A stretch of 64,000 bases of DNA, taken from IMG/VR virus record IMGVR_UViG_3300042879_005260, positions 29,514 through 93,513 of that record. One strand, written 5' to 3'. The stretch is from a virus (lineage: Duplodnaviria; Heunggongvirae; Uroviricota; Caudoviricetes). Within the stretch, counting starts at the first letter, position 1, and every line of letters begins with the position of its first letter. The notes below the pieces were generated by a model. That model was not told where the DNA came from. It saw only the letters and a program-made list of their open reading frames with translations, and did no database searches. Of the stretch, positions 2,378-63,637 are shown in pieces. The translations under genes were made by a program, and so were the position numbers.

Positions 2378-3622
2378 TTAATTTATCATAAGAATACGTT
2401 TTGTTATGTTATTACCTATTGTAACTATATAATTACCAGAAACAATGTCACCGACTTCAAAAGTTTGTGTACCAACAAATAAAATATTGTTAAATTTTTT
2501 AACACATTGGCCAGTTATATTGTAAATTTTAATATCACCACTTTTTTCTGTGACATTTTTAAAATTTAAAAAAATAAAATTTCTATCAGTAAAAACATCT
2601 ACAGTTTTATTTGTTTCTGAAAAAAAACCAGATGGATCCGAAATTTCAACAAGTACCGAATCTTCGGAAACACAAATACCATTGCTTGATTTTAATTTAA
2701 CAACATAAGTACCAACTTGGTTATAAACATGTGAAACCGTTGTTGAAATGGTGGAGTCAACCGCTGAACCATCACCAAAATCCCATATCTGACTTACTCC
2801 ATTAATAATTGTTGCATAAAAAATAATCGGGGTATTTATTATTCCAATAATTGGATTTATGTAATTAAATTGTATTTTAACAAAGTTAGTATTTGGGATT
2901 GTAACCCAATCCTCTATTATAAAACCATCTATTTGTAACAACATTTTATAGTTTCCAGATGTCAATAAAAAAAATATCGTATCAGATTCACCACTAAAAT
3001 CGGTAACAGTACCCAAAGTATCGTTTTCTGAGTTAATCAAAGTGATATCAACATCTAAAAAATTACTTAAATATTGAGTGACAATTAAACCACTACCATG
3101 TAAAACAGATTGTACCTGGCAAGGTTCTACGATTCCCGCCACAGTAAGAGGTGGGTGTATATGTATAAAAAACCTATTGTTAAATGTACCTGGAGTTAGT
3201 GAAACAGTAACACTGTTGTTTATTCTTAGGTTTTGTTTTAAACCTGTAATAGAATCTTCAATATAAATCATACTACTGGGTGGAAAACTACTAAAGTCAG
3301 AAACTGTTATTGTGTAATTTGCCAATGTTTGTATATAAAGGCCTAATGGTATTTTAAAATCTTTATTTAATTGACCCATAACGTTGATGGCCAATTTTTC
3401 ATTATCTATTATAGTGTAAATACTTGGGACACCTGGTAATGCCGCTAACATCTTTACACCGTCACTGCTTAGATTGAAACTATCACTTCCTAATGGGTCA
3501 AAATATATTACAGTTTCATCAGCACTATTATTACCTTGTAGTTCAATACACAATAGATTAGGTATTTCATTGGCGAATAAATTGGTTGTTATTAAGCAAA
3601 AAAATAGTAAAAACTTTTTCAT
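2378..3622 (-). CDS. secreted protein with T9SS type A (Por) C-terminal sorting domain
   Basis: signal peptide MKKFLLFFCLITTNLFA; C-terminus IKIYNITGQCV...GNYIVTIGN resembles Por secretion tail. Confidence 0.5.
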   Translation of the reverse strand: MKKFLLFFCLITTNLFANEIPNLLCIELQGNNSADETVIYFDPLGSDSFNLSSDGVKMLAALPGVPSIYTIIDNEKLAINVMGQLNKDFKIPLGLYIQTLANYTITVSDFSSFPPSSMIYIEDSITGLKQNLRINNSVTVSLTPGTFNNRFFIHIHPPLTVAGIVEPCQVQSVLHGSGLIVTQYLSNFLDVDITLINSENDTLGTVTDFSGESDTIFFLLTSGNYKMLLQIDGFIIEDWVTIPNTNFVKIQFNYINPIIGIINTPIIFYATIINGVSQIWDFGDGSAVDSTISTTVSHVYNQVGTYVVKLKSSNGICVSEDSVLVEISDPSGFFSETNKTVDVFTDRNFIFLNFKNVTEKSGDIKIYNITGQCVKKFNNILFVGTQTFEVGDIVSGNYIVTIGNNITKRILMIN

Positions 3623-5776: not shown

Positions 5777-6362
5777 AGGTGATTTTAAAATAGAAAAAAT
5801 TACTAAAAAAGAGGCTGCAACAATTTTACTACATTATCATTATTTAAAAGATAAATCTAAAAGTTTTAAAAGTGGTTATAATTATGGCCTTTTTAAAGGT
5901 ACAGAATTATTAGGTGTTATTATTTTTACAGGTTTACCAGTCCCAGAATTGAGCAAAGGTATGTTGGGGTTGGAAAGAAATCAACAAGAAGGTTTATTTG
6001 AATTAAGTCGGTTATGCATACATCCCAAAATTCAAGGTCAAGAACATAATATAACCAGTTGGTTTGTTAGTAGAAGTATAAGAAAACTACGAAAAGAAAC
6101 AAATGTACGTTTAATATTAAGTTATGCTGATGCAGAATATCATGAAGGTGTTATTTATAAAGCATGTAATTTTACATATTATGGATTAACGGATTTTAAA
6201 AAAGATTTTTGGATACAACAAGAAGATGGTTCTTACATAAAACATTCCAGAGGCTCAATTAAAAATTTAAAAGGTGAATGGCGACCTAGAAGTCAAAAAC
6301 ATCGTTATATCCTTTTATTTGATAAAAGTTTAAATATTAAATGGAAATCCCATACGAAATAA
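5769..6362 (+). CDS. hypothetical protein
   Basis: ORF track 197 aa. Confidence 0.4.
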   Translation: MSKGDFKIEKITKKEAATILLHYHYLKDKSKSFKSGYNYGLFKGTELLGVIIFTGLPVPELSKGMLGLERNQQEGLFELSRLCIHPKIQGQEHNITSWFVSRSIRKLRKETNVRLILSYADAEYHEGVIYKACNFTYYGLTDFKKDFWIQQEDGSYIKHSRGSIKNLKGEWRPRSQKHRYILLFDKSLNIKWKSHTK

Positions 6363-6865
6363 AAGAAGAAATTTTAGAGTATTGTCGATTAAACAATATT
6401 AAAGAGACTGATAAGTTTATTTTTAAAATGATCCGCCAAGGATATACGGTTGAAAAATACGGCACCTCACCAATTGTGCCACAAGTAATTGAAAAAGAAA
6501 TTATTAAAGAGGTAGAAAAAATAGTTGAGGTTCCAGTTGAAGTTATTGTTGAAAAAGAAATTATTAAAGAAGTAATCAAAGAAGTGGAAAAAATAATTAC
6601 CGACGATAAACAGGTCCAAGAATTATTAGATAAAGTAGCTGATTTAGAGGTAAAATTGGAAGAAGAAAAACAAAAAGTTTCCAATAGTGAAATAAATAAA
6701 TTGTATCAAAAAATAAGTAATTTAGAAGCACTTTTAGAGTTAGAAAAAAACAGAAATAAAGTTGACAATAAAAATACAAACCCTTTTGGGGATAAAATTA
6801 AAAGTGCTATAAATTGGATATCTAAAGAAGATAGAGCAGAGAAAAAAGATTTATATGGTGAATAA
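6341..6865 (+). CDS. coiled-coil protein with internal tandem repeat
   Basis: KEIIKEVEKIVEVPVEVIVEKEIIKEV; underlying DNA repeat gaaaaagaaattattaaaga at 6490 and 6550. Confidence 0.45.
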   Translation: MEIPYEIKEEILEYCRLNNIKETDKFIFKMIRQGYTVEKYGTSPIVPQVIEKEIIKEVEKIVEVPVEVIVEKEIIKEVIKEVEKIITDDKQVQELLDKVADLEVKLEEEKQKVSNSEINKLYQKISNLEALLELEKNRNKVDNKNTNPFGDKIKSAINWISKEDRAEKKDLYGE

Positions 6866-6871
6866 AATTAT

Positions 6872-7264
6872 TTATCTTTCAAAGACATCACCTAAATCAT
6901 CAAATAGTTTTTTATATTCGTTTTTAATCCCTTCACTCAGTCCATCATCACTAAAAATTCTTAGAAAATGATTTAACAAAAATTCTAGATTAAAATTTTC
7001 AGCTTTTTCGTAGAAAAAATGACTATCAGTTTTATCTGGAATAATTTCACCTATAAAGTAATAAAAATTATTATTTCCATTTTCTTCATCTACAATATAA
7101 TCATAACCATTAAAAGATTTTTTACCTTTTAATTTTGTTTGAAATAATTTCATTAAAAATTCAGGATTTTTTGAAGCATCACTTGGTGGTATAATATTAT
7201 AATTTTCGATCCAATCAAAATCATCAAACTCTTCCCTTAATATTTTTCTTATAAGATTTTTCAT
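6872..7264 (-). CDS. array-associated family member (conserved N-terminal module only)
   Basis: N-terminus MKNLIRKILREEFDDFDW identical to family; start abuts distal end of mini-array A. Confidence 0.5.
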   Translation of the reverse strand: MKNLIRKILREEFDDFDWIENYNIIPPSDASKNPEFLMKLFQTKLKGKKSFNGYDYIVDEENGNNNFYYFIGEIIPDKTDSHFFYEKAENFNLEFLLNHFLRIFSDDGLSEGIKNEYKKLFDDLGDVFER

Positions 7265-7277
7265 ATTTTATAAATAT

Positions 7278-7378
7278 CAGGTCAACACCTTTCGTTTATG
7301 GGTCATCTCTAGCGCCGTGAAATTAAATGATGATCTAGGTCTGCTGTCAATACCTTTCGTTTATGGGTCATCTCTAGC
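7278..7378 (-). CRISPR. mini-array A: 2 repeats (36 bp), 1 spacer (29 bp)
   Basis: repeats 7278-7313 (degenerate distal) and 7343-7378 (gene-proximal, gctagagatgacccataaacgaaaggtattgacagc in gene sense); spacer 7314-7342. Confidence 0.6.
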
Positions 7379-7707
7379 ATACGCATACATAAGTCTTTGA
7401 TTTCCTGATTGTTAAGACCAAATTTTTGATTTAATTTTCTCCAAATTTTATCATAATTAACTAATAAAATCGGATTTTTTTCATCCCTATCCGCATCATC
7501 CGCCATTAAATTTAGCCCACTTTTATCCTTATATAACATCCAACCTGGATTTTTTTCCGAAGGAATCATCTTTAAATTTGACATAATTTCATATAAAAAC
7601 TCTTCAGCGGGAGAAAATTGTTTGGTGTTACCAATCAATTCTTCTGCCCAACCAAAATCATCAAATTGTTCTTTTAGAATTTGTTTTACTATTTCACTAA
7701 TTTTCAT
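7309..7707 (-). CDS. array-associated family protein (FDDFGW...LEMTHKRKVLT); 3' end runs into mini-array A
   Basis: homologous over full length to 21508..21873, 39154..39597, 52997..53419; C-terminal LEMTHKRKVLT encoded by first repeat; ORF tail is read-through of spacer. Confidence 0.55.
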   Translation of the reverse strand: MKISEIVKQILKEQFDDFGWAEELIGNTKQFSPAEEFLYEIMSNLKMIPSEKNPGWMLYKDKSGLNLMADDADRDEKNPILLVNYDKIWRKLNQKFGLNNQEIKDLCMRMLEMTHKRKVLTADLDHHLISRR

Positions 7708-21507: not shown

Positions 21508-21873
21508 ATGAAAAACCTTATAAGAAAAATATTAAGGGAAGAATTTGATGATTTTGATTGGGTGGGGGAAATTAAACAATTTTCACCCGCTGAAGAGTTC
21601 TTATATGAAATCATGTCCAATTTAAAGGCGGTTACTTCGGAAAAAAATCCAGGTTGGATGTTTTATAAGGATATAAGTGGACTAAATTTAATGGCGGATA
21701 ATGTGGATAGAGATGAAAAAAATCCTTATTTATTAGTTGATTATCGTCAAATTTGGAGAAAATTACGTCAAGAATTTGGCCTTAATGAACAAGAAATCAG
21801 TAATTTATGCGTGCGTATGCTGGAAATGACCCATAAACGAAAGGTATTGATAGCTGCATCTCCCGGATTTTGA
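21508..21873 (+). CDS. array-associated family protein; 3' end is first repeat of mini-array B
   Basis: MKNLIRKILREEFDDFDWVGEIKQFSPAEEF...CVRMLEMTHKRKVL; stop lies inside spacer 1. Confidence 0.55.
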   Translation: MKNLIRKILREEFDDFDWVGEIKQFSPAEEFLYEIMSNLKAVTSEKNPGWMFYKDISGLNLMADNVDRDEKNPYLLVDYRQIWRKLRQEFGLNEQEISNLCVRMLEMTHKRKVLIAASPGF

Positions 21874-22115
21874 AACGGTGCAGAGCTGGAAATGACCCAT
21901 AAACGAAAGGTGTTTACAGCAAAAACTTGACGAACTTTTTTCGGAGTCGCTGGAAATGACCCATAAACGAAAGGTGTTTACAGCGCCAATTCATAATTCC
22001 TGGCAAATCCCTCTGCTGGAAATGACCCATAAACGAAAGGTGTTTACAGCTGTTACTGATGGTGGTATTGTGGCATACAGCTGGAAATGACCCATAAACG
22101 AAAGGTATTACTCCA
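21819..22115 (+). CRISPR. mini-array B: 5 repeats (36 bp), 4 spacers (30, 28, 30, 29 bp)
   Basis: repeats at 21819, 21885, 21949, 22015, 22080 (consensus gctggaaatgacccataaacgaaaggtgtttacagc; first and last degenerate at 3' end); spacers 21855-21884, 21921-21948, 21985-22014, 22051-22079. Confidence 0.7.
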
Positions 22116-22641
22116 CAAAATTAGTCCATTGGTCAGATTGTATTTCATTTAAATAAAAAGAATCAATACGACCAGTAGATTTCATTTCTTGACCCCAATT
22201 TTTAAAAGTACCAAAGTGTTTTGGGCGATCGTCCCATAATTCAATATCACGAATAGTTGGATATCTATATAATATTAAATCAAGATATTTTATTTTTTCG
22301 TTTAACGTACTACCACCTTTATTAAAAAAATAAAAATCAAAGTACAATTCGTTATCATCTAATATTTCTTTAACTAGACCCGCTAAAGATTCTAACCTAC
22401 CAGTGGACATAATCATCAAACAGTTAGGGTCTTCACTATATTTCAAATAATCGTTATAAACCTCTTTAATCGGTTCCATAGTCCAAACATTTCTATCTAA
22501 AGATTCTGGTCTACCCCACCAACCTTTATAAGCCCATGGTTTTCCGTAATAAGAGGCCCATTTTTCTTTATTCTCAGGTGAAGCAACAGGTGTGTCTATC
22601 AAAGTTCCGTCAAAGTCGAAATAACATAATTTAGTTTTCAT
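22108..22641 (-). CDS. HAD-superfamily phosphatase
   Basis: motif I FDFDGTL at N-terminus; 177 aa. Confidence 0.55.
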   Translation of the reverse strand: MKTKLCYFDFDGTLIDTPVASPENKEKWASYYGKPWAYKGWWGRPESLDRNVWTMEPIKEVYNDYLKYSEDPNCLMIMSTGRLESLAGLVKEILDDNELYFDFYFFNKGGSTLNEKIKYLDLILYRYPTIRDIELWDDRPKHFGTFKNWGQEMKSTGRIDSFYLNEIQSDQWTNFVE

Positions 22642-29181: not shown

Positions 29182-29208
29182 TTTTATGACTCTTTGAAAT
29201 ATTTTAAT

Positions 29209-29279
29209 GTCCGATGGTGTAACGGCTAACATTTCTGAATTTGACTCAGAAGATTTCAGGTTCGAATCCTGATCGGACA
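29209..29279 (+). tRNA. tRNA-Gln(UUG)
   Basis: acceptor GTCCGAT/ATCGGAC, anticodon arm TCTGA-ATTTGAC-TCAGA, T-arm TCAGGTTCGAATCCTGA. Confidence 0.7.
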
Positions 29280-29288
29280 ACCATAACC

Positions 29289-29361
29289 GGAGCTTTCGTA
29301 TAGCTGGTGCGTACGTTGGACTGAAAATCCAAAGGACTAGGCTCGATTCCTAGAGGCTCCA
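29289..29361 (+). tRNA. tRNA-Phe(GAA)
   Basis: anticodon arm TTGGA-CTGAAAA-TCCAA; T-loop CTCGATT. Confidence 0.7.
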
Positions 29362-29367
29362 CTGAAC

Positions 29368-29441
29368 GGCGTCGTAGTCAAGTGGTTTAAGACAGGACTC
29401 TCATAAGGTCCCATTCGGGGGTTCGAATCCCTTCGACGCTA
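29368..29441 (+). tRNA. tRNA-Met/Ile2(CAU)
   Basis: anticodon arm GGACT-CTCATAA-GGTCC; T-arm GGGGGTTCGAATCCCTT. Confidence 0.65.
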
Positions 29442-29446
29442 CAAAT

Positions 29447-29519
29447 TCTCCTGAAGCATTGCTGGCGATGCACCTGACTTGTAATCAGGATACAATCGGT
29501 TCGATTCCGGTCGGGAGAT
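29447..29519 (+). tRNA. tRNA-Thr(UGU)
   Basis: anticodon arm CCTGA-CTTGTAA-TCAGG; T-loop TTCGATT. Confidence 0.65.
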
Positions 29520-29525
29520 CCAAAT

Positions 29526-29597
29526 AGTTCTGTAACTCAATGGAAGAGTACCAAGCTTACATCTTGGCTGTCGTTAGTTCGATTCTAACCAGAACTA
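29526..29597 (+). tRNA. tRNA-Val(UAC)
   Basis: acceptor AGTTCTG/CAGAACT; anticodon arm CCAAG-CTTACAT-CTTGG. Confidence 0.65.
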
Positions 29598-29604
29598 CTT
29601 AAAT

Positions 29605-29679
29605 GCCTCCATGGCGGAATTGGTAGACGCGTCACTCTTAGAAAGTGAATTTTTGTAGGTTCGAATCCTACTGGGGGCA
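29605..29679 (+). tRNA. tRNA-Leu(UAG), short variable arm
   Basis: Leu-type D-arm GCGGAATTGGTAGACGC; anticodon arm TCACT-CTTAGAA-AGTGA; discriminator A; only 75 nt. Confidence 0.55.
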
Positions 29680-29690
29680 CAAAAAAATAT

Positions 29691-29721
29691 TTGGTAAATT
29701 AAAAAATTTTATCTATATTTG
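29691..29721 (+). promoter_or_regulatory. Bacteroidetes-type promoter inside the tRNA cluster
   Basis: TTG at 29691, 20-nt gap, TATATTTG at 29714-29721, directly upstream of tRNA-Glu. Confidence 0.45.
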
Positions 29722-29733
29722 TACAACAATAAC

Positions 29734-29805
29734 GGTCGGTTCATCTAAGGGTTAGGATACAAGATTTTCATTCTTGTCATAGGGGTCCGAATCCCCTACC
29801 GACTA
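29734..29805 (+). tRNA. tRNA-Glu(UUC)
   Basis: anticodon arm CAAGA-TTTTCAT-TCTTG; T-arm AGGGGTCCGAATCCCCT. Confidence 0.65.
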
Positions 29806-29876
29806 CAAAAGGTTGATTGGGAATTCGGTGAACCGATGAGGTGAGTGAAACTAATCATAAAGTTCTTTGATATTAT

Positions 29877-29964
29877 GGCTGGGTGGCGAAATTTGGTTAT
29901 ACGCGAAAGACTTAAAATCTTTTGGACCGTGAGGTCCGTGCGGGTTCGAGTCCCGCCCCGGCTA
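29877..29964 (+). tRNA. tRNA-Leu(UAA), class II
   Basis: anticodon arm AAAGA-CTTAAAA-TCTTT; long variable arm TGGACCGTGAGGTCCGT; T-arm GCGGGTTCGAGTCCCGC. Confidence 0.7.
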
Positions 29965-29970
29965 CTAAAC

Positions 29971-30047
29971 ATGGTGATAGAGGAGTCAGGTTTATCTCGC
30001 TTGGTTTGGGACCAAGAATTACGTGGGTTCGAATCCCACTCACCATA
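29971..30047 (+). tRNA. tRNA-Pro(UGG)
   Basis: acceptor ATGGTGA/TCACCAT; anticodon arm CTTGG-TTTGGGA-CCAAG. Confidence 0.6.
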
Positions 30048-30055
30048 CTAAACAA

Positions 30056-30128
30056 GCCCTCGTGGCGCAACGGTGAGCGCAGGATGCTTATATCATCAAG
30101 GCTGTTGGTTCGAGTCCAACCGAGGGTA
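30056..30128 (+). tRNA. tRNA-Ile(UAU) candidate
   Basis: anticodon arm GGATG-CTTATAT-CATCA gives anticodon TAT; T-arm GTTGGTTCGAGTCCAAC. Confidence 0.5.
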
Positions 30129-30227
30129 CTAAAAAAAATATTAATCCTAGATTAAAATGAAAATAAAATATAAATATAAACAGTAAGGTTAGTCCACTAC
30201 GAATGGGCTAACCTTATAAAATGTTAA

Positions 30228-30299
30228 CCGCTCGTAGCAAACTGGTGTAGGCAATAGACTTTTAATCTATGGGGCTGGGTTCGACTCCCAGCGGGCGGA
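30228..30299 (+). tRNA. tRNA-Lys(UUU)
   Basis: anticodon arm ATAGA-CTTTTAA-TCTAT; T-arm CTGGGTTCGACTCCCAG. Confidence 0.65.
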
Positions 30300-30324
30300 C
30301 AAAAACCAAATTAAATAAGATTAC

Positions 30325-30840
30325 ATGAAAAATGATATGATATTAGTTTTAAACTCTGATTACACACCACTGACGGTTGCAAGTGTTAACAGGGCTTTTA
30401 AATTAATTTATAAAGAAAAAGCTGAAATTATAATATCTAAAGGTTATATTAAAACTGAAAAAAAAGATTACGAAAAACCTTTAATAATTAGATTATATAA
30501 TCATATAACTTATCCGTATAAAAAAGCAACGTTATCCAGGTACAATTTATATAAAAGAGACAGTTATAAATGCCAATATTGTGGTTCCGATAAAAACCTA
30601 ACCATGGATCATATTTTACCAAGAAGCAGGGGCGGTAAAAATACCTGGGACAACCTGGTTACTTGTTGTAACAGATGTAACGTTTATAAAGGTGATAGAA
30701 CGCCAGAAGAGGCAAATATGTTTTTAATTAAAAAACCTTTTGCACCAAATCATTTATTTTTTATAAATAAAATGTATAAAACACACGAAGAATGGAAACC
30801 ATATTTAAAGGAAACTAAAAATGAACAAATTGATTTTTAA
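30325..30840 (+). CDS. HNH homing endonuclease
   Basis: CQYCGSDKNLTMDHILPRSRGGKNTWDNLVTCCNRCNVYKG HNH motif. Confidence 0.75.
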   Translation: MKNDMILVLNSDYTPLTVASVNRAFKLIYKEKAEIIISKGYIKTEKKDYEKPLIIRLYNHITYPYKKATLSRYNLYKRDSYKCQYCGSDKNLTMDHILPRSRGGKNTWDNLVTCCNRCNVYKGDRTPEEANMFLIKKPFAPNHLFFINKMYKTHEEWKPYLKETKNEQIDF

Positions 30841-30914
30841 ATATCTGGGTTGGTTACTTTACCCAGATGGTAAACAAGGAAAAGAACATAGGCATAAAAA
30901 TTTAAAAAATATTT

Positions 30915-31106
30915 ATGGAAAATAATAAAGCCATATTTGAAGAAGGTCGGGATTATTACTTAAAAGATGGTAAAGTCATTATGACCGAATATTATTTAAT
31001 TAAAAAAGGTCGTTGTTGTGGTTCGGGTTGTTTATTTTGCCCTTATGAACCTTTTCATACTAAGGGAACCACTAAATTGAGAAATATACCTAAAGATAGT
31101 TATTAA
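30915..31106 (+). CDS. small Cys-rich protein
   Basis: GRCCGSGCLFCPYEP cysteine cluster. Confidence 0.35.
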   Translation: MENNKAIFEEGRDYYLKDGKVIMTEYYLIKKGRCCGSGCLFCPYEPFHTKGTTKLRNIPKDSY

Positions 31107-31109
31107 AAA

Positions 31110-31141
31110 TTTTTTTTAATGAAAAAAAATACTTATATTTG
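31110..31141 (+). promoter_or_regulatory. Bacteroidetes-type -7 box (TTATATTTG)
   Basis: TATATTTG at 31134-31141 overlaps the track ATG at 31139, so the real start is probably ATG 31163. Confidence 0.4.
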
Positions 31142-31162
31142 TACCACAAAAAAAATAAAAAA

Positions 31163-31417
31163 ATGAACTGGATAAAAAAATTAATTCCCGCCTATGTTGA
31201 AGTTAGGTCTTTGTACTGGGTAAACTATTCTAAAAAAATGGACGCAGAACTAAATAGAATTTTTGAATCTATTGACAACGATGATTATGTAACAGCAGAA
31301 AAACTTATTGCTGAATTTGAATCAAAACATAGTCAAGGTGAAGTTCCTTTGTGGGTTGCTGTTGAAATGGCGGCAATACACAGAGCAAAATCAATGTTGA
31401 ATTTTTTAAATTCTTAA
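31163..31417 (+). CDS. hypothetical protein (start adjusted to MNWIKK)
   Basis: track ORF 31139..31417 trimmed because the promoter -7 box overlaps its first ATG. Confidence 0.35.
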   Translation: MNWIKKLIPAYVEVRSLYWVNYSKKMDAELNRIFESIDNDDYVTAEKLIAEFESKHSQGEVPLWVAVEMAAIHRAKSMLNFLNS

Positions 31418-31603
31418 TATAAAAACCAAAATAACTATGATAAAAAACAAGTACATTTTAATGGCGGCAGCTGCATTATCAGTTCCCTTCATTCTAGCAT
31501 GGACATTTAACCATGTCAATCCATGGCTCGCATTCGGAGCCGCACTATTTTTAGTATTATTAATCAATAACTATTTCACAACAAACAAAAACAACAATCA
31601 AAA

Positions 31604-32434
31604 ATGAAAACAAAAATGAAAACAAAAATGAAATCAATCCTTTTTAGCTTAATCGTAGTAGTAACCCTTAGCTCATGTGAGCGTGTCGCACCCAATTATT
31701 ATGGAGTTCTCATGGAAAACTACGGTAAAAATGGCAAAGAAGACTACTCGAAACAACAAGGGAGAGTAAACACAACTGCTCCAGGTACAGAACTGTTTCA
31801 AGTACCAGCTTTTGAACAAAGAGCCGCATTTACTAATGAAGACGGTACCGATCGTGTATTGAAGCTCAAAGCAGCAGATAACACTGAGTTTAATGCCAAA
31901 CCACTTTATTCCTATAAGGCAATGCCTAATCGAGTAGTTGATTTGGTATTTCAAAATGCTCGACTTGGTAGTGGTGATAGCTTTATGAAATCCCTAGAAG
32001 ATAATGTGTTAGAACCTCATATTTACGATTTAATCAAAGAAGAAAGTAGAAAATACATTACTGACTCTCTTATGGCTAATGGTGGTTCATTAAAGTTTGA
32101 AGAGCGAGTACAAGCTCTAGTTAAGAAATCTTTCGAAGACAAAGGTTTAGAGTTAATTACCTTCAGTGCAAACCTTGACTTCAGTGATAAAGTAAAAGCT
32201 AAAATTGATTCTCGTAATGAAGTAAATACAAACATATCAGTGTTAGATCAACAAATTGCTGAGCAGAAAAAGAGAAACGAATTGGCTGAATTACAAGCAC
32301 AGGAAAACATAATCAAATCAAGAGGTATTACTCAAGAGTTGTTGCAACAACAAGCACTTGAAAAATGGAATGGTGTGTTACCAAGTACTTGGGCTGGGAA
32401 TGGTAGTTTACCTTTTGTAAAAGCAGTTAAGTAA
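31604..32434 (+). CDS. SPFH/band-7 domain lipoprotein
   Basis: lipoprotein signal ...TLSSC; prohibitin-like core with C-terminal coiled coil AEQKKRNELAELQAQE. Confidence 0.55.
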   Translation: MKTKMKTKMKSILFSLIVVVTLSSCERVAPNYYGVLMENYGKNGKEDYSKQQGRVNTTAPGTELFQVPAFEQRAAFTNEDGTDRVLKLKAADNTEFNAKPLYSYKAMPNRVVDLVFQNARLGSGDSFMKSLEDNVLEPHIYDLIKEESRKYITDSLMANGGSLKFEERVQALVKKSFEDKGLELITFSANLDFSDKVKAKIDSRNEVNTNISVLDQQIAEQKKRNELAELQAQENIIKSRGITQELLQQQALEKWNGVLPSTWAGNGSLPFVKAVK

Positions 32435-32443
32435 TAAAGGTTT

Positions 32444-32520
32444 AGTCAGGTGGCTGAATTGGCGACAGAGGCACTCCATTAGACAATGGGTGGATGCAGG
32501 TTCGAGTCCTGTCCTGACTA
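32444..32520 (+). tRNA. tRNA-like element with aberrant anticodon region
   Basis: acceptor AGTCAGG/CCTGACT and T-arm GCAGGTTCGAGTCCTGT are canonical, but the central region forms an extended CCATT-AGAC-AATGG hairpin instead of a 7-nt anticodon loop. Confidence 0.4.
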
Positions 32521-32540
32521 CTAAAAAATTAAAAAATAAA

Positions 32541-32570
32541 TTTGACTTTAAATAAAAAACACTTATATTT
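32541..32570 (+). promoter_or_regulatory. Bacteroidetes-type promoter (TTGACT..19..TATATTTG)
   Basis: TTGACT at 32541, TATATTTG at 32563-32570, ATG at 32596. Confidence 0.5.
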
Positions 32571-32595
32571 GTATTAAAATCAAACATTTAGACTT

Positions 32596-33510
32596 ATGAA
32601 AAAGAACTCACTCTCAACTGCCGGACTTTCGTTATCTCAAGCACAATCAATTAGTAATCTTTGTAATCAAAGAGCTAAAGATATTGAGGCGGATTTAAAA
32701 AATGTTAATAATGTTGAGAAGGTTTTAAAAATAAACAATGAAGTTTATGTTGAAACGACCGCAAAAAAACTGCCTGAAAATACCATAGAGATTTTATCAG
32801 AGAAAGCAAAATTACATGCTTGTCAGGCATTTTTAATGGAAAACATAAAAGCCAAAGATCAGTTGATAACTGAATTACAACGTAAAGTTTTTGTTTCTAA
32901 TTTAGAAGAACCTAAAATACCAGAATATAAAACATACGATGAATTACCTTTGGTGAATGAAGTTTGGGGTTGGGGCCAGCTTTCGGTTTCTGAATATAAT
33001 GAATATTTGGAGGCAGAGGCTTACGCATCCCATATTGGACAGTTTATCCATAAAGACGGTAAATTGGACACTCTTCGTAGAGAACTACCAAATATTAAAA
33101 CTTTGGAGTGGATTACGATTAAAGATGGTGAAAAAACACCTTTAAAGGTTACTATTCACCACACTCAGAGCCAATTATTGGAATTACATGAAAATTTGGC
33201 CGCAATGCACCGTAAATACGAACAACGTGTTAATTACTTTAAAGCAAAAGTAAAAAACATGGTAACCGAAGAAAATGCTCGTATTTCTAAGGAAAATGCA
33301 TTTAAGTTGGCGGAAGTAATAAAAGAAAACGAAATTCTTGAAAAAGAATTCACCAACCTGTATAAAAATTACCAATCTGAAAACCTAAAATTGAAACAAG
33401 ATTTTGAGGTGAGTCGTCAAGAACAAATTAAAGAAGTTTCTTCTTTAAGAATTCAGGTGGACCCAAGATTTCAAGAGGTTGTTAATTTTTTTTTAAGTAA
33501 AATGGCATAA
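32596..33510 (+). CDS. coiled-coil hypothetical protein
   Basis: ORF track 304 aa. Confidence 0.4.
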   Translation: MKKNSLSTAGLSLSQAQSISNLCNQRAKDIEADLKNVNNVEKVLKINNEVYVETTAKKLPENTIEILSEKAKLHACQAFLMENIKAKDQLITELQRKVFVSNLEEPKIPEYKTYDELPLVNEVWGWGQLSVSEYNEYLEAEAYASHIGQFIHKDGKLDTLRRELPNIKTLEWITIKDGEKTPLKVTIHHTQSQLLELHENLAAMHRKYEQRVNYFKAKVKNMVTEENARISKENAFKLAEVIKENEILEKEFTNLYKNYQSENLKLKQDFEVSRQEQIKEVSSLRIQVDPRFQEVVNFFLSKMA

Positions 33511-33849
33511 TGAAGGTGGTTCAAAAGTAAGCATAAGCCGATATTTTGAACTTTTGTATTTGGTGGTTTGGTTCTTAATGTAATGAATATTACTCAATAA
33601 TTAATTTACATTTTTTTATCATCTAGGTGATAAAAATACCAAACCGCTTCCTTACAAACTTTAAAAACTGAGATAGAACTCACGGTTAGACAGGTTATCC
33701 TATAGTGGAAGAATTGGCTAACAAATTGAGACTTGGTTTTTGGCTTTGTCTTTGATGTGAGGAAGGTCTTTGATTTAGTTTTTGATTTAGACGTTATCTA
33801 CACACCAAATCACTAAATAACTTCATAAAACATTAGTTCTTTAAATTTT

Positions 33850-34121
33850 GCACCTGTAGCTCAGTTGGATTAGAGCAACTGCCTCAAATCGGGGGTGTTA
33901 TGTCAGAAATGACATAATAGAATTCATCAAATTCGGGGAATCCTGTAAAATGGTAATCCCGAGCGAAGCCTGAAAAGGAACGTGTAGAGACTTGACGGTG
34001 AACACCTAAGTTAGAATCTAATAAGGTGATGGGAAAGTCCAGACCACAAACGTAAATGGTAGTGAAAACTATAGTGGTATGTCTAAGCAGTAGGTCCCAG
34101 GTTCGAATCCTGGCAGGTGTA
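33850..34121 (+). tRNA. tRNA-Arg(UCU) interrupted by a group I intron
   Basis: 5' exon GCACCTGTAGCTCAGTTGGATTAGAGCAACTGCCT (33850-33884); 3' exon TCTAAGCAGTAGGTCCCAGGTTCGAATCCTGGCAGGTGTA (34082-34121). Spliced product closely matches bacterial tRNA-Arg(UCU). Exon ends in U, intron ends in G. Confidence 0.6.
33885..34081 (+). ncRNA. group I intron (trnL-intron-like core), ~197 nt
   Basis: GGTAATCCCGAGCGAAGCC resembles the trnL intron GGGCAATCCTGAGCCAA element; GTGTAGAGACTTGACGG resembles the catalytic-core GCAGAGACTCAATGG; P7 pairing GACUU/AAGUC present. Confidence 0.55.
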
Positions 34122-34341
34122 CAATGAGTAAGAGATACTCAGCAGTCTTTGGTTCAAGACTCATTTAACAATGAACCCGTTCAAACTGGACAGCGGAATG
34201 CCAGTTCTTAGGGTCAAAGGCGCCAATCACAGCTCCTCCTTCGTAGTGTGACTTTTTTAATAGGGGATGCCCTGTAGGTTTCATCAATAGGAAAAAAACC
34301 GGAATGACTACTCACCTGGAATCTCAAGGTGGGGAAATTTA

Positions 34342-34433
34342 GTCGGGTGGCGGAATTGGTAGACGCTGGCTTGAGAAGAATGTAGAGAGAGCCTTAAAGG
34401 ACATTCAATACAGGTTCGAATCCTGTCCTGACA
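34342..34433 (+). tRNA. tRNA-like element (Leu-type D-arm), anticodon arm unresolved
   Basis: GGCGGAATTGGTAGACGC D-arm and AGGTTCGAATCCT T-arm; 3' half nearly identical to the 32444 element; middle forms a GAATGT...ACATTC hairpin with a 17-nt loop. Confidence 0.35.
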
Positions 34434-34455
34434 ACTAAAAAAAATACAAAAATAC

Positions 34456-34486
34456 TTGATAGATTAAAAAATATTTAGTATCTTTG
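34456..34486 (+). promoter_or_regulatory. Bacteroidetes-type promoter P1 in RNA island
   Basis: TTGATA..20 nt..TATCTTTG (34479-34486). Confidence 0.5.
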
Positions 34487-34597
34487 TTATGTTCTTTGGA
34501 AAGGAGGTCTGGTGTGAACCTGAGATATTTGAGATTCCCGATAAGGGAACGATTTTAAGCGACTCAGTAGCACATTCCAAACAACAAAAAAAATATT

Positions 34598-34628
34598 ACA
34601 AAAGTACTTGACAAATTAAAAAATGTTT
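34598..34628 (+). promoter_or_regulatory. Bacteroidetes-type promoter P2 (near-duplicate of P1)
   Basis: TTGACA..20 nt..TATCTTTG (34621-34628); ~50-bp block nearly identical to P1. Confidence 0.5.
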
Positions 34629-34634
34629 AGTATC

Positions 34635-35810
34635 TTTGTAAGACAAAATCGGGAAACCGAATCGTTCTTTGAAAAAATAGATTATCCGTTCAGGTGAAAG
34701 TAAGTTCTTCGGAACTATGATAACTTGATAAAGATATTGGGCCGTGTATAGTCCTTAAATAAACTACGAAAGTAGGATAAAGTGAAATCATCTGTGTTAG
34801 TGGTTTTGCGTCTTGGGAAACCGAGGTCGAGTACACAAGTGGGATATCATCTAACCTTTAGTACTGAGGGCAACGCTTTAGGGAAAATGGTTAGATGACT
34901 AAGCAATGTGGATTGTTTAGTTGAGGTGGGAACACCGATAAGAATAACCCATAGGAATCTTACAAAAAATGTGATTATCCAGTTACATTATTGTGGGTTC
35001 CAATACAAGAGAGGACTTAAAACCGAAAGGTAAGATGGAGAACGAGTGGTGTCGCTACCATCCCTATCAAAGATTTACCAAAATCTTGATATGAAGTAAT
35101 CTTAAAATATGGAAATGGGGACATTTCACTGAGTAGTTTGGTATTCTTTTCTTCAAAAGAGAACGGAGCCTACGACGGACCACTACTTGGACACATCCAC
35201 AACACAAAAACTTTATTATGAAAATTAAAGTCCATTTAATAAATAATTCTAAAGCAAAAGTGTTCGTCAGGTGTTGATGAAAGGTGATTACATAGTCATG
35301 AGTTGTTCATGGCACACTGAGACCGCAAGTTGATGTGTATTCTTGTGAAAAACCTCTAGTCCCGCAAGGATCAACTGGGGAGGCATCCTCGGAGAGAGTT
35401 GAGTAGAAAGAGAGTAGTTGGCACCTCTAGGAGTTGTATACCTAAAAAACCATCACTGAGAAATACTTCTCAAAAGGAAGTGGAAATAAAGGGAAACAAT
35501 AATCCTTTTAAAGGTTCTCACAAAAAACGTGTATTCTCAGCGTAAGTTTTAAAAAATATTTTAAAAGTAAAAAATCAAAACCACTGGTTAAACCCACTGG
35601 GGATTAGGCTCTAATGATGTCCACCCTTTGGTAAGTACTCACAATAGGCCGGCTTCTTTAATGGCTGATACGTGTATAAGTCCGAGCATAAAACACGAAC
35701 TCTACTTACTTTGTGAAATTACTGCCAATTGCAGACTACTATGTGGAATAAATAGATGACCTTCTGAACATAAAGATAAGTGCTCTTGGTTTGATTTTGT
35801 TATAATATAA
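34635..35810 (+). ncRNA. candidate large structured non-coding RNA (~1.2 kb, unknown family)
   Basis: downstream of promoter P2; no ORF above 60 aa on either strand; locally GC-richer than genome; many local hairpins; T-arm-like GGTTCGATTCC near 35855. Confidence 0.3.
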
Positions 35811-35959
35811 GGCGGGCGGACAGGTTGGTATCTGAGGAAGTCTCATAAGCTTCAAAAATCTGGTTCGATTCCAGAGCGTCGCAACTAATGTGTCACCAAT
35901 CCCTGGTTCAAATTGGTGGTCTCGGTGAAAGGTACTAGTCCTATTTCACCCAAACATAA

Positions 35960-36030
35960 GCGAGTATAGCATAAAATTAATGCGCCGGTTTTCCAAACCG
36001 AAGAAGGTGGAGAGTTACCATCTACTCGCT
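35960..36030 (+). tRNA. tRNA-Gly(UCC) candidate with atypical D/T loops
   Basis: acceptor GCGAGTA/TACTCGC; anticodon arm CCGGT-TTTCCAA-ACCGA; T-stem GGTGG/CCATC with non-canonical loop AGAGTTA; D-loop lacks GG. Confidence 0.4.
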
Positions 36031-36039
36031 CAAAAATAA

Positions 36040-36110
36040 GCGGTATTTGTGTAGTGGTAAGACATGACATTGCCAATGTTAAGACGTAAGTTCGATTCTT
36101 GCATACCGCT
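36040..36110 (+). tRNA. tRNA-Gly(GCC)
   Basis: acceptor GCGGTAT/ATACCGC; anticodon arm TGACA-TTGCCAA-TGTTA; T-arm GTAAGTTCGATTCTTGC. Confidence 0.6.
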
Positions 36111-36156
36111 CTATTGATTTTTTTACATTGTAAACATATATTTATATTAAAAAAAT

Positions 36157-36708
36157 ATGAAAGATAAATTTGATGATTTTGGTGACGACTTTTTTGGTCG
36201 TTGGGAAGAGTTTAATAGATTAATGGTTAACTCACCTTTGATAAGAGATGAAATGGAAAAATTTCTTCGAATGCTAATGGATTCCAATGATTTAAATAAC
36301 GAAATTTCAAATATTAGAATCATACCTTTGAATGCTTATAAGCCAAATGATATTGATTCTTTTGATATTCCAGAAAACGAATTGGATGTTGAAAAAGGTG
36401 AAAATGAAAACGGTAAATGGGAAACTAAAAGTTGGACATCTCCAGATGGTTCTATGAGTTTTAAATCTTTTAGTATGTCATCAACACCCGAAGAATTTTT
36501 TTATAAAAATTTAATGTCAGATCTTTTTCAAACTGGTGACAATAGAAATTCAAAAAAATATACTACAGAAGATTTGAAAAATTTTAAAATAGAAAAACTC
36601 CAAAAATCTTTAAATGCCGCAGTTGAAGTTGAAGATTATGAAAAAGCTGCGGAACTTAAAAAAATGATTGAAAAAATAAAAGAAGAAAATTTTGATAATA
36701 AAAAATAA
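36157..36708 (+). CDS. acidic protein with UVR-like motif
   Basis: C-terminal LQKSLNAAVEVEDYEKAAELKKMIEKIK resembles UvrB/UvrC (UVR) domain. Confidence 0.4.
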   Translation: MKDKFDDFGDDFFGRWEEFNRLMVNSPLIRDEMEKFLRMLMDSNDLNNEISNIRIIPLNAYKPNDIDSFDIPENELDVEKGENENGKWETKSWTSPDGSMSFKSFSMSSTPEEFFYKNLMSDLFQTGDNRNSKKYTTEDLKNFKIEKLQKSLNAAVEVEDYEKAAELKKMIEKIKEENFDNKK

Positions 36709-36727
36709 TTTTATATATTTGTGATAT

Positions 36728-36890
36728 ATTTATAAAACAGAAAATGAAAAATTGGCAAAACATATCGATTAACCATAGTAACCGAATTAGTTCGGAATGT
36801 ATGAGGTGTGTCTTGTCCAGATTTAAGGTATAATTATTTTTATAAAAAATTGGATAACCCACCTCAAGAAATTTGATGGTGGGTTTTTTG
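36728..36890 (+). ncRNA. candidate small RNA (~160 nt) between promoter and terminator
   Basis: TTGATA..TATATTTG promoter at 36692-36721; terminator hairpin 36856-36885 plus T-run; only a 29-aa ORF inside. Confidence 0.3.
36855..36890 (+). terminator. rho-independent terminator
   Basis: aacccacc...ggtgggtt hairpin plus T6. Confidence 0.6.
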
Positions 36891-37006
36891 TTATTTGACA
36901 TATTGGAAATAAATTGGAGAGTTAAGCAGATGCATTGGAGCGTCGACCAGCTTTGAAACCTGGGTCTCGTTAAATTGAGTGGGGGTCGGGTCCTCAGCTC
37001 TCCGCT

Positions 37007-37081
37007 GTGTCTGTAGCTTAGATGGTTTAAAGCGTCTGATTGTGGTTCAGAAGACCGTGGGTTCGAATCCCACCAGACACC
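37007..37081 (+). tRNA. tRNA-His(GUG)
   Basis: acceptor GTGTCTG/CAGACAC; anticodon arm TCTGA-TTGTGGT-TCAGA; T-arm GTGGGTTCGAATCCCAC. Confidence 0.65.
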
Positions 37082-37087
37082 TTATAG

Positions 37088-37159
37088 GGGGGTGTAGCTC
37101 AGAGGCAGAGCAAACTACTGTTAATAGTTAGGCCGAGATTTCAAAATTCTCCATCCCCG
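37088..37159 (+). tRNA. tRNA-Asn(GUU)
   Basis: acceptor GGGGGTG/CATCCCC; anticodon arm AACTA-CTGTTAA-TAGTT; T-loop TTCAAAA. Confidence 0.55.
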
Positions 37160-37165
37160 CAAAAT

Positions 37166-37238
37166 AGTACCGTGTCTGAACGGTTTAGGAACTATCCTGA
37201 TAAGATAGGAAAAGTGGGTTCGACTCCCACCGGTACTA
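37166..37238 (+). tRNA. tRNA-Ile(GAU)
   Basis: acceptor AGTACCG/CGGTACT; anticodon arm CTATC-CTGATAA-GATAG; T-arm GTGGGTTCGACTCCCAC. Confidence 0.65.
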
Positions 37239-37244
37239 CAACAT

Positions 37245-37326
37245 GCATCTGCTCATTGGTGTGACCAACCGGCTCCAACCCGGTAATGCGTAAGCGTGGT
37301 TAAGAGTTCGAATCTCTTCGGATGCG
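37245..37326 (+). tRNA. tRNA with anticodon CCA (Trp?) and long extra arm, atypical
   Basis: acceptor GCATCTG/CGGATGC; anticodon arm ACCGG-CTCCAAC-CCGGT; T-arm AAGAGTTCGAATCTCTT; 82 nt. Confidence 0.4.
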
Positions 37327-37331
37327 CAAAA

Positions 37332-37418
37332 GGAAGATAGGTAAATATTGGTTTGTTACAACATCCTGCTAAGATGTCCCAGGTAAAACTGGTGAGGGTT
37401 CAATTCCCTTGTCTTCCG
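37332..37418 (+). tRNA. tRNA-Ser(GCU), class II
   Basis: anticodon arm ACATC-CTGCTAA-GATGT; long variable arm CCCAGGTAAAACTGGT; CCA encoded. Confidence 0.65.
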
Positions 37419-37424
37419 CCAAAT

Positions 37425-37499
37425 AGTCCCATAGCTCAACGGATTTAGAGTACAGTGCTACGAACACTGCGGTTGAAGGTTCAAATCCTTCTGGGACTA
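37425..37499 (+). tRNA. tRNA-Arg(ACG)
   Basis: acceptor AGTCCCA/TGGGACT; anticodon arm CAGTG-CTACGAA-CACTG; T-arm GAAGGTTCAAATCCTTC. Confidence 0.65.
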
Positions 37500-39118: not shown

Positions 39119-39286
39119 CAGGTTAACATTTTTCGTTTATGGGTCATCTCCAGCTATGCCATTGGTAGCAGAGTGGTCTCTAACGCTGTCAATACCTTTC
39201 GTTTATGGGTCATCTCCAGCCAAAGTTCCCACGTTTTAAAAAGACATGCAGCTGTCAATACCTTTCGTTTATGGGTCATCTCCAGC
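39119..39286 (-). CRISPR. mini-array C: 3 repeats (36 bp), 2 spacers (30 bp each)
   Basis: repeats 39119-39154 (degenerate distal), 39185-39220, 39251-39286 (gene-proximal); spacers 39155-39184 and 39221-39250. Confidence 0.65.
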
Positions 39287-39597
39287 ATACGCACGCATAA
39301 GTCTTTGGTTTCCTGATAGTTAAGACCAAATTTTTGACTTAATTTTGACCAAATTTCATCATAATCAACCCATAAACAAGGGTTTTTTTCATTTCTATCC
39401 ACATTATCCGCCATTAAATTTAGCCCACTTTTATCCTTATATAACATCCAACCTGGATGTTTTTCCGAAGGAACCGCCTTTAAATTGGACATAATTTCAT
39501 AAAGAAATTCTTCAGCGGGGGAAAATTCTTTAATTTCCCCCACCCAATCAAAATCATCAAACTCTTCCCTTAATATTTTTCTTATAAGATTTTTCAT
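39154..39597 (-). CDS. array-associated family protein; 3' end runs through mini-array C
   Basis: MKNLIRKILREEFDDFDWVGEIKEFSPAEEF...CVRMLEMTHKRKVLT; ORF tail is in-frame read-through of repeat-spacer units (each 66 bp). Confidence 0.55.
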   Translation of the reverse strand: MKNLIRKILREEFDDFDWVGEIKEFSPAEEFLYEIMSNLKAVPSEKHPGWMLYKDKSGLNLMADNVDRNEKNPCLWVDYDEIWSKLSQKFGLNYQETKDLCVRMLEMTHKRKVLTAACLFKTWELWLEMTHKRKVLTALETTLLPMA

Positions 39598-39610: not shown

Positions 39611-39844
39611 CAGGTCAACACCTTTCGTTTATGGGTCATCTCCAGCTCAAATCAACTTCAATCAAAGTCCGATTCAGCTGTCAATACCTTTCGTTTATGG
39701 GTCATTTCCAGCACCCTCGCCCGGATTGTTGGAGGTGAAAAGGCTGTCAATACCTTTCGTTTATGGGTCATTTCCAGCCAGCGAATGTGAAGCGTGACAC
39801 CTCCGGTTGCTGTCAATACCTTTCGTTTATGGGTCATTTCCAGC
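39611..39844 (-). CRISPR. mini-array D: 4 repeats (36 bp), 3 spacers (30 bp each)
   Basis: repeats 39611-39646 (degenerate distal), 39677-39712, 39743-39778, 39809-39844; spacers 39647-39676, 39713-39742, 39779-39808; spacers about 50% GC in a roughly 30% GC genome. Confidence 0.7.
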
Positions 39845-52975: not shown

Positions 52976-52996
52976 ACAGACGGATATTTATATTAT

Positions 52997-53419
52997 GTGA
53001 AAAACCTTATAAAAAAAATATTAAGAGAAGAGTTTGATGATTTTGATTGGGTGGGGGAAATTAAAGAATTTTCCCCCGCTGAAGAATTTCTTTATGAAAT
53101 TATGTCCAATTTAAAGGCGGTTCCTTCGGAAAAAAATCCAGGTTGGATGTTATATAAGGATAAAAGTGGGCTAAATTTAATGGCGGATAATGTGGATAGA
53201 AATGAAAAAAACCCTTGTTTATGGGTTGATTATGATGAAATTTGGTCAAAATTAAGTCAAAAATTTGGTCTTAACTATCAGGAAACCAAAGACTTATGCG
53301 TGCGTATGCTGGAGATGACCCATAAACGAAAGGTATTGACATCTGATGGCCTGCCTGCACGGTTTCTTGTTTTGCTGGAGATGACCCATAAACGAAAGGT
53401 ATTAACCTCATATTTATAA
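52997..53419 (+). CDS. array-associated family protein (apparent GTG start); 3' end runs through mini-array E
   Basis: VKNLIKKILREEFDDFDWVGEIKEFSPAEEF...CVRMLEMTHKRKVLT; ATG at 52994 is followed by TGA, GTG in frame. Confidence 0.5.
   Translation: MKNLIKKILREEFDDFDWVGEIKEFSPAEEFLYEIMSNLKAVPSEKNPGWMLYKDKSGLNLMADNVDRNEKNPCLWVDYDEIWSKLSQKFGLNYQETKDLCVRMLEMTHKRKVLTSDGLPARFLVLLEMTHKRKVLTSYL
53308..53409 (+). CRISPR. mini-array E: 2 repeats (36 bp), 1 spacer (30 bp)
   Basis: repeats 53308-53343 and 53374-53409 (degenerate distal); spacer 53344-53373 tgatggcctgcctgcacggtttcttgtttt. Confidence 0.6.
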
Positions 53420-63564: not shown

Positions 63565-63637
63565 CGGTCCACACGGGAGTTGAACCCGTTCCATACTCCG
63601 TGACAGGGAGATATCTTAACCGTTTGACCTGTGGACC
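63565..63637 (-). tRNA. tRNA-Asp(GUC)
   Basis: reverse complement: acceptor GGTCCAC/GTGGACC, anticodon loop CTGTCAC, T-arm ACGGGTTCAACTCCCGT. Confidence 0.55.

Follow-up and report, generated by a model that had tools for sequence, protein, structure and literature searches.

In the 64,000 nucleotides (nt) analysed here (positions 29,514 to 93,513 of the IMG/VR virus record IMGVR_UViG_3300042879_005260, Caudoviricetes; referred to as the window in the following), the minus strand carries at 7278-7378 an element named array A. Judged from its sequence, array A is a small repeat-spacer array of the CRISPR type (clusters of regularly interspaced short palindromic repeats), the first repeat of which consists of the last 12 codons of a phage gene, gene A. 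It comprises a 36-nt repeat, a unique spacer of 29 nt and a second, decayed repeat, and the window contains five arrays of this design in total (Table 1). Arrays of this kind probably arise by an insertion process of the CRISPR type, in which the repeat is duplicated together with the uptake of each insert.

Compared to the proximal repeat, the distal repeat of array A shows mismatches at position 28 and in the last bases. The conserved domain of gene A ends in the proximal repeat, and the initial annotation had the gene itself end there as well. This does not hold, since the open reading frame (ORF) runs on through the 29-nt spacer and stops at a TAG, which is made up of bases 3-5 of the distal repeat. 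Read in the repeat frame of the gene, the distal repeat yields KVLT followed by TGA, and the same is true for the terminal copy of array D. In both arrays, this looks like the original, native end of the gene. The annotation was right in that the 29-bp spacer and the degenerate distal repeat lead directly into gene 6872-7264, as confirmed by the minus-strand sequence, while its description of a locus between two family genes applies fully to gene A only. Gene 6872-7264 has the start region and the N-terminus MKNLIRKILREEFDDFDW (about 20 codons) in common with the family, but not the repeat-bearing domain.

Gene A belongs to a family of phage proteins of about 120 amino acids (aa), the last 12 codons of which form the 36-nt first repeat (..LEMTHKRKVLTA). 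A search with the repeat only, in which the gene was ignored, led to 48 related loci, 12 from IMG/VR and 36 from metagenomes. Including the window, all 62 arrays start in the 3' end of a family gene. All repeat copies sit in arrays of two to five repeats with one to four spacers, within or just after the gene, and at no point in the window or in the IMG/VR and metagenome loci was the repeat found away from a family gene. For the 33-nt core of the repeat, 13 matches with at most three mismatches were determined in the window compared to none in 100 shuffles, and looser scans of the window resulted in 16 repeat copies distributed over the five arrays. A solitary repeat copy, as expected for an anti-repeat like that of a trans-activating CRISPR RNA, was not present in the window.

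The family comprises 111 clusters at 90% identity, all of them metagenomic and none with a Pfam domain, and an exhaustive profile search gave at least 151 family clusters at 50% identity. No matches of the family protein were obtained in Pfam, PHROGs and the PDB sequences or by tblastn in 50,697 deposited phage genomes, and its fold matches lack the strength needed to argue for a binding of nucleic acids. In one subfamily the repeat GTTGTATGAGACCCATAAACGAAAGGTATTAACAGC matches the own C-terminus ..MLYETHKRKVLT, and in another one the repeat GTTGTGGGAGACCCATAAACGAAAGGTGTCTACAGC matches the own C-terminus ..MLWETHKRKVST. The distant members LEEDYKLKGFTP, LGEHYNLRGVTP, MWETLKLKDITP and VEEAYKIKVETT and about fifteen others (about 20 clusters) showed their own C-terminus repeated at a period of exactly 22 residues. 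The DNA of four distant loci (L057, L058, L060 and L061) shows repeats of 36 nt with a decayed last copy, and most of the spacers are 30-31 nt long. The 36+30 layout persists down to about 25% protein identity, and the contigs with distant family arrays are phage-like and about 100 kb to 561 kb in length. A fusion of as many as five gene-plus-array units into one ORF, with all spacers open in frame, was found in other phages (L062 4001-6283, corresponding to P0141 of 760 aa; also P0158, P0138 and P0173); this may reflect ascertainment or a variant that is translated.

The 81 unique spacers of the window and its relatives are of nearly constant length, with 64 of 30 nt, 12 of 29 nt, four of 31 nt and one of 28 nt. 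While 79% comprise exactly 30 nt, the other 21% shift the reading frame, as in array A. The spacers are mutually dissimilar, also at the amino-acid level. Their mean content of guanine and cytosine (GC) amounts to 39-41% compared to 29-30% for the phages, and their base composition is symmetrical (A ~ T, C ~ G), as would be expected for fragments of foreign double-stranded DNA. In the frame of the gene, 32 of 64 spacers are open, compared to 46 and 33 in the other two frames. Since in-frame stops are not depleted in the spacers, the repeats act at the level of the nucleic acid. The repeat itself shows a GC content of 47% compared to 29% in the phage genome and is rich in codons that are rare in the phage, namely CTG (1% of Leu), AAG (7% of Lys), CGA (9% of Arg) and GAG (13% of Glu). 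In addition, no other part of the family protein is as conserved as the repeat region. The retention of rare codons together with this conservation indicates selection on the nucleotide sequence.

A comparison of related arrays showed differences by whole 66-nt units at the side of the gene, while the distal spacer was shared. This was observed for three pairs: array D contains three spacers compared to the distal one only in L010/L005, L022 contains three compared to the distal one only in array E, and L003 contains two compared to the distal one only in L009. Accordingly, two gene-proximal spacers are extra in the first two cases. The pair L001 and L003 needs an additional deletion or recombination. 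Syntenic arrays without any common spacer were found for array B of the window compared to L019/L043 and for L014 compared to L047. The spacer of array A, on the other hand, is identical in all copies found (L052-L056; tails of P0007, P0012 and P0013). The turnover of spacers between related phages, by which the initial annotation had proposed to judge its idea of adaptive acquisition, is therefore observable for arrays D and E, for L003/L009, at the position of array B and for the gene body P0012, but not for array A. The terminal repeat decays at positions 31-36, with position 32 being less affected. Since a constant insert length, the exact duplication of a segment, polarity and the decay of the terminal repeat coincide, the arrays are considered to carry the footprint of a Cas1-Cas2-type integration. 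We know of no other process that gives constant insert length, duplication of a fixed segment, polarity and terminal decay together.

The junction behind array A recurs in the window. The motif ATATTTATAWWAYATG was found at seven sites compared to 0.29 expected, each time at a start codon of the family type. According to the initial annotation, the same junction occurs at no fewer than four loci in 64 kb. This is correct for arrays A, C, D and E; the arrays are in fact five in number, and array B has no junction. Six of the seven genes with the motif also show the N-terminus MKNLIRKILREEFDDFDW, the exception being the 562-aa gene (start 41344, MGNISNISL), and some of the genes with the motif, with lengths of 130 aa and 355 aa, have bodies that are unrelated. 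In the very distant phage L058, the N-terminus MKNLIRKILREEFDDFDW likewise follows an array. The ORF of gene B stops 7 codons into the first spacer of its array. The ORF of gene E2 extends to a later stop, and the gene may represent a decayed former array site.

Table 1. Coordinates of the arrays, their genes and the junction sites in the window.
Feature	Position	Strand	Remarks
Array A	7278-7378	-	2 repeats
Array A, proximal repeat (36 nt)	7343-7378	-	inside gene A; GCTAGAGATGACCCATAAACGAAAGGTATTGACAGC; encodes ..LEMTHKRKVLTA
Array A, single spacer (29 nt, 38% GC)	7314-7342	-	AGACCTAGATCATCATTTAATTTCACGGC; translates as tail DLDHHLISRR
Array A, distal repeat	7278-7313	-	GCTAGAGATGACCCATAAACGAAAGGTGTTGACCTG; 3' end decayed
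Junction motif behind array A	7262-7277	-	ATATTTATAAAATATG; its ATG is the start codon of gene 6872-7264
Gene A (132 aa, family member)	7309-7707	-	frame continues past proximal repeat and spacer
Downstream gene (130 aa)	6872-7264	-	directly beside SbcC in relatives
Array B	21819-22115	+	5 repeats, 4 spacers (30, 28, 30, 29 nt); abuts convergent gene 22108-22641; without junction
Gene B (121 aa, family member)	21508-21873	+	
Array C	39119-39286	-	3 repeats, 2 spacers, then junction into 355-aa gene 38038-39105
Gene C (family member)	39154-39597	-	ORF open across both array C spacers
Array D	39611-39844	-	4 repeats, 3 spacers, then junction into gene C
Gene D (562 aa)	39658-41346	-	family domain at C-terminus
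Array E	53308-53409	+	2 repeats, 1 spacer, then junction into gene E2
Gene E1 (family member)	52997-53419	+	
Gene E2 (family paralogue)	53423-53806	+	decayed repeat region (..VHKRQVDAV.., ..NLVHKRQVDAVGALYNLHLSQF), no array
Junction/start-motif sites	7262, 21495, 39103, 39595, 41344, 52984, 53410		

The relatives also show how gene and array move together. In L063-L065, the 130-aa gene is kept beside an SbcC gene of 88% identity, while both gene A and array A are absent. Since the 130-aa gene occurs there without either of them, the unit of about 445 bp formed by gene A and array A is an insertion in the lineage of the window. In the near-identical strains L052-L056, gene A and its spacer are unchanged. 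Within L052 (3430-3497), the sequence switches from window position 7211 (7211-7277) to 52983 (52983-53050), that is, within the 68 nt formed by the junction and the 5' conserved region. Such a switch would be expected if the junctions of loci A and E, which are inverted relative to each other, had recombined, by which about 46 kb would be inverted. Furthermore, the spacer tail DLDHHLISRR of array A is located behind gene bodies of 76-89% identity to gene A (P0007, P0012 and P0013), and the gene body P0012 carries two different spacers in P0009/L008. Based on the switch in L052 and the occurrence of one spacer tail on differing bodies, arrays and gene bodies are reshuffled by recombination in addition to the gain of spacers. 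The earlier proposal of a modular unit is thus supported by the presence of gene and array at five loci of the window, by the missing cassette in L063-L065 and by the recombination within the junction of L052.

Concerning the machinery behind the arrays, we see an even chance that they are gene-anchored arrays which are extended by an adaptation module of the host and read by an effector of the host. In this case, an integrase would cut at both ends of the gene-proximal repeat, duplicate it and add the insert, as Cas1-Cas2 does. The most likely source of the integrase would be a host adaptation module acting in trans, similar to the II-C module that serves the cas1-less type VI-B array of Flavobacterium columnare. 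The messenger RNA of the gene would carry the transcribed array as its 3' tail; in several relatives, a stem-loop with a T-run, as in a terminator, is located right after the last repeat. From this transcript, RNAs consisting of guide plus repeat could be formed, the 36-nt hairpin of which resembles the repeats of Cas13b (type VI-B). Loaded into the host effector, these RNAs would provide harmless or phage-chosen guides, acting either as a decoy or in the conflict with other elements. That the partner is a VI-B/II-C system of the host is a tentative suggestion that we consider rather doubtful, and a decoy function of the guides appears less probable again.

The CRISPR-2 array of F. columnare (type VI-B) comprises a 36-nt repeat and 30-nt spacers (PMC5395568). 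It is found without cas1 and cas2, and its spacers are supplied in trans by the II-C module (PMC8092290). Cas13b binds the hairpin of the whole repeat, the CRISPR RNA (crRNA) is built as guide followed by repeat, and a surplus of non-targeting crRNA sequesters Cas13b and weakens the defence (PMC13187072). A survey of solitary repeats in viruses reported all CRISPR types except type VI (PMC10651486), and since type VI is missing there, a VI-B-like array in a virus would be new.

For the phage repeat, a hairpin of the form ((((..(((.(((...))))))..)))) was predicted, in which an internal loop of 2 nt separates the inner stem from the terminal stem GYUG/CARC of 4 bp. Over 35 repeat variants, this pairing was found in 88% of the cells compared to 27-49% with slid partners; the covariation was modest. 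The ungapped identity to the VI-B repeats amounts to 18-22 of 36 positions for F. columnare and to 16-21 of 36 for PspCas13b (shuffle p <=0.01), with these two repeats being the only references. To the II-C repeat of F. columnare the phage repeats are less similar than to the VI-B repeats. Taken together with the 36/30 geometry, the predicted hairpin of the whole repeat and the GYUG..CARC ends, the likeness to CRISPR-2 also includes the probable phylum of the host and the side of growth, which is the one where transcription of the array would begin. The differences to type VI-B are likewise clear: the arrays are phage-borne, neither cas13b nor csx27/28 accompanies them, the inner stem is shorter, the loop is A-rich instead of U-rich, coding sequence takes the place of the leader and no leader-repeat hairpin was detected.

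Several results weigh against an array that depends on the host. None of cas1, cas2, cas9 and cas13 was present among the 74 ORFs of the window, which covers about half of a phage contig of probably about 122.6 kb. The repeat, searched with two patterns, was absent from bacterial and archaeal genomes (GTDB; 185,579 species with one genome each), and thus no matching host array was obtained. No protospacers were found for 88 spacers in 614 kb of related phage DNA, for 29 spacers in the 50,697 deposited phage genomes and for five spacers in IMG/VR by exact 22-24-mers. Accordingly, the adaptive, immune acquisition proposed by the initial annotation finds no support in a protospacer, a cas gene or a host array. 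Neither CRISPR-DR nor another Rfam family matched the repeats, be it at gathering thresholds or at E-values up to 10. The position of the leader is taken by coding sequence without a non-coding leader, and a leader-repeat hairpin as in VI-B systems gave no signal above shuffled leaders (7.2 compared to 6.3 cross pairs). With regard to type VI-B in particular, the inner stem comprises 3 bp compared to about 6 bp in Cas13b repeats. The similarity is equal in both orientations and may reflect only hairpins with GYTG..CARC ends, and the sequence pattern is partly dictated by the protein motif, to which the conservation of the repeat may partly be owed as well. Finally, repeat and protein diverge together within the family, which is awkward if the repeat must fit a protein of the host.

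This last point is among those in favour of an autonomous system of the phage. Here, the family protein, or a different phage protein encoded outside the window, would recognise the DNA or RNA encoding the C-terminal helix of the family protein and, without any Cas protein, direct 30-nt insertions or use the repeat-spacer transcript as guides. In this case, CRISPR-like arrays would have originated a second time independently. The strict link of gene and array in 62 of 62 cases, the divergence of the repeat with the gene under a 36+30 ruler that stays fixed even in the most distant members and the absence of the repeat both away from the gene and in the 185,579 species genomes are in line with this. 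Nonetheless, such a system is considered unlikely, since a 120-aa protein without nuclease or integrase motif would hardly be an integrase, no candidate enzyme is present in the window and the fold matches do not suffice for nucleic-acid binding. Moreover, the 36/30 geometry with GYTG..ACARC ends is that of the VI-B systems of Bacteroidota and is most simply explained by that machinery. Somewhat less probable still is a self-contained, gene-anchored recording, in which the small phage protein together with a phage enzyme would insert 30-nt fragments and duplicate the 36-nt segment, corresponding to an origin of memory independent of Cas1-Cas2. If true, the likeness to VI-B would be a convergence, or the family genes would even be a source of such repeats. 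A further explanation would be functionless scars ("neo-CRISPR"), caused by off-target integration of a host adaptation complex at the repeat-like gene end, with a C-terminal tail that tolerates inserts. Off-target integration as such has been described (Nivala et al. 2018, cited in 10.1101/148544), the terminal copies of arrays A and D read as a native gene end (KVLT and stop), the arrays are short with one to four spacers and no targets were found. However, the arrangement is kept across the 151 or more clusters at 50% identity, very distant members included, and occurs several times per genome, and a chance resemblance would not persist in the way that the rare codons and the strongest conservation suggest for selection on the nucleotides. 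Scars are therefore regarded as improbable, to a slightly greater extent than the self-contained recording.

The two remaining explanations do without a CRISPR-type insertion. If the C-terminal tail were hypervariable or repetitive, with a 22-aa period that is translated and selected, for example as a varied binding surface, this would agree with repeat (36) and spacer (30) lengths that are both multiples of three, with the many ORFs open through one or more units and with the in-frame fused polyproteins of some phages (P0141, P0158). Since the frame of the gene is not preferred (32 of 64 spacers open compared to 46 and 33), 21% of the spacers including that of array A shift the frame, the ORF of gene B ends 7 codons into its first spacer and the spacers are dissimilar in amino acids, we regard a protein-level feature as very improbable. 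The observed reading frames would already fit proteins whose tails finish within or shortly behind the first repeat. The least probable of all explanations is a tandem duplication of the 66-nt unit by slippage or unequal crossing-over with subsequent divergence of the unconstrained part. The direct repeats and the paralogues would allow unequal recombination, and recombination at the junction was indeed observed. But the spacers within an array show no similarity, neighbouring ones in young arrays included, nearly identical phages carry completely different spacers, the GC content of the spacers lies 10 points off that of the genome, and mutation cannot erase 30 nt and at the same time spare the adjoining 36 nt.

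Phage mini-arrays, solitary repeats and off-target neo-CRISPRs are already known. In the literature searched, no arrays were found that have the conserved end of a protein-coding gene family as their first repeat, occur several times per genome, are kept in distant relatives and match no host array. For archaeal viruses and several phages, virus-borne mini-CRISPR arrays that lack cas genes have been described; their repeats match the array of the host, they are located in non-coding DNA behind a leader, and their spacers are mostly directed against related viruses. The arrays described here resemble them by their one to four spacers, the lack of cas genes nearby, their occurrence at several sites per genome and the presumed dependence on a host system. 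They differ by a first repeat that is the end of a conserved coding gene, by the missing match to a host array and by the missing targets. For TnpB and IscB, the omega-RNA forms an RNA scaffold that overlaps the 3' end of the protein gene and is directly followed by a segment of guide length. The arrays show the same order of scaffold and guide-length segment, which is an analogy only: the family protein of 120 aa comprises neither RuvC nor HNH, several scaffold-guide units follow each other and no transposon ends are present.

Similar to RNA anti-CRISPRs (Racrs) and viral solitary repeats, CRISPR-like repeat copies of a phage that are present in excess could titrate a Cas protein. Racrs, however, are single repeats with their own promoter and without spacers, while the phage arrays show spacer turnover and are embedded in the messenger RNA. 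The off-target integration of spacers makes new arrays from non-CRISPR sequence, according to the account of Nivala et al. 2018 cited in 10.1101/148544. As in these neo-CRISPRs, the repeat of the phage arrays stems from a pre-existing non-CRISPR sequence, namely a gene end, which is duplicated at each insertion. In contrast to neo-CRISPRs, which are sporadic laboratory events, the gene-anchored arrays are conserved in a large and old family with selection at the nucleotide level. They offer a natural case for two questions, the origin of an array from ordinary sequence and the upkeep of an array by a virus without cas genes, and may reveal in which way CRISPR memory is borrowed, turned into a decoy or reinvented by viruses.

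CRISPR arrays are regarded as non-coding loci beside cas genes, and those of viruses as copies of host arrays. Array finders that drop repeats inside ORFs miss the gene-anchored arrays. If the partner is a VI-B/II-C system of the host, they would be the first viral arrays of type VI and would represent a means, open to testing, by which phages could flood Cas13b with guides of their own. With a phage protein as the partner, they would represent a new kind of system.

With regard to enzymes that could be involved, no integrase candidate was present among the window ORFs, and the family protein shows neither a nuclease nor an integrase motif. Neither cas13b nor csx27/csx28 adjoins the arrays of the window or lies beside those in L057, L061 and L062. 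Matches to "Cas9" by PADLOC were rejected, as they comprise a single ORF each, no window ORF exceeds about 830 aa and they are most likely matches to the HNH domain. A sigma-70 promoter in the repeat (TTGACA) was rejected as well due to the wrong spacing of the -10 element and a scan at chance level.

The host of the phage is probably a member of the Bacteroidota, the phylum of the VI-B systems considered here, since two proteins of the window carry sorting domains of the type IX secretion system (T9SS; Por_Secre_tail, CHU_C). These domains are found at the C-terminus of ORF 2378-3622 on the minus strand and of one further ORF, both with PKD domains. Going by their sequences, the phages with the gene family are most likely uncultured phages of Bacteroidota. 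A megablast search with 6 kb gave no match, and the tblastn hits of SbcC, in uncultured phages and a Microcystis phage, reached only about 30% identity.

Apart from the arrays, the window contains a full-length GOLLD RNA at 35129-35543 on the plus strand (306 bits; gathering score 150) within a tRNA cluster. About 21 tRNA genes are located at 29208-37499 on the plus strand and at 63565-63637 on the minus strand, and a group I intron match of 61 bits was obtained among them at 33875-34062. Host-like genes of the window encode IF3, a sigma-70 factor, DnaJ, two Mom-like proteins, DHFR, RNase HII and the RNA-repair domains cREC_REC and HAD_SAK_1, and near-identical contigs additionally carry ribosomal protein S21 (L049 1174-1359). 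Near array A, the 174-aa ORF 6341-6865 contains short tandem coding repeats (EKEIIKEVEKIV..) at 6489-6600 on the plus strand, which represent an ordinary protein repeat unrelated to the arrays.

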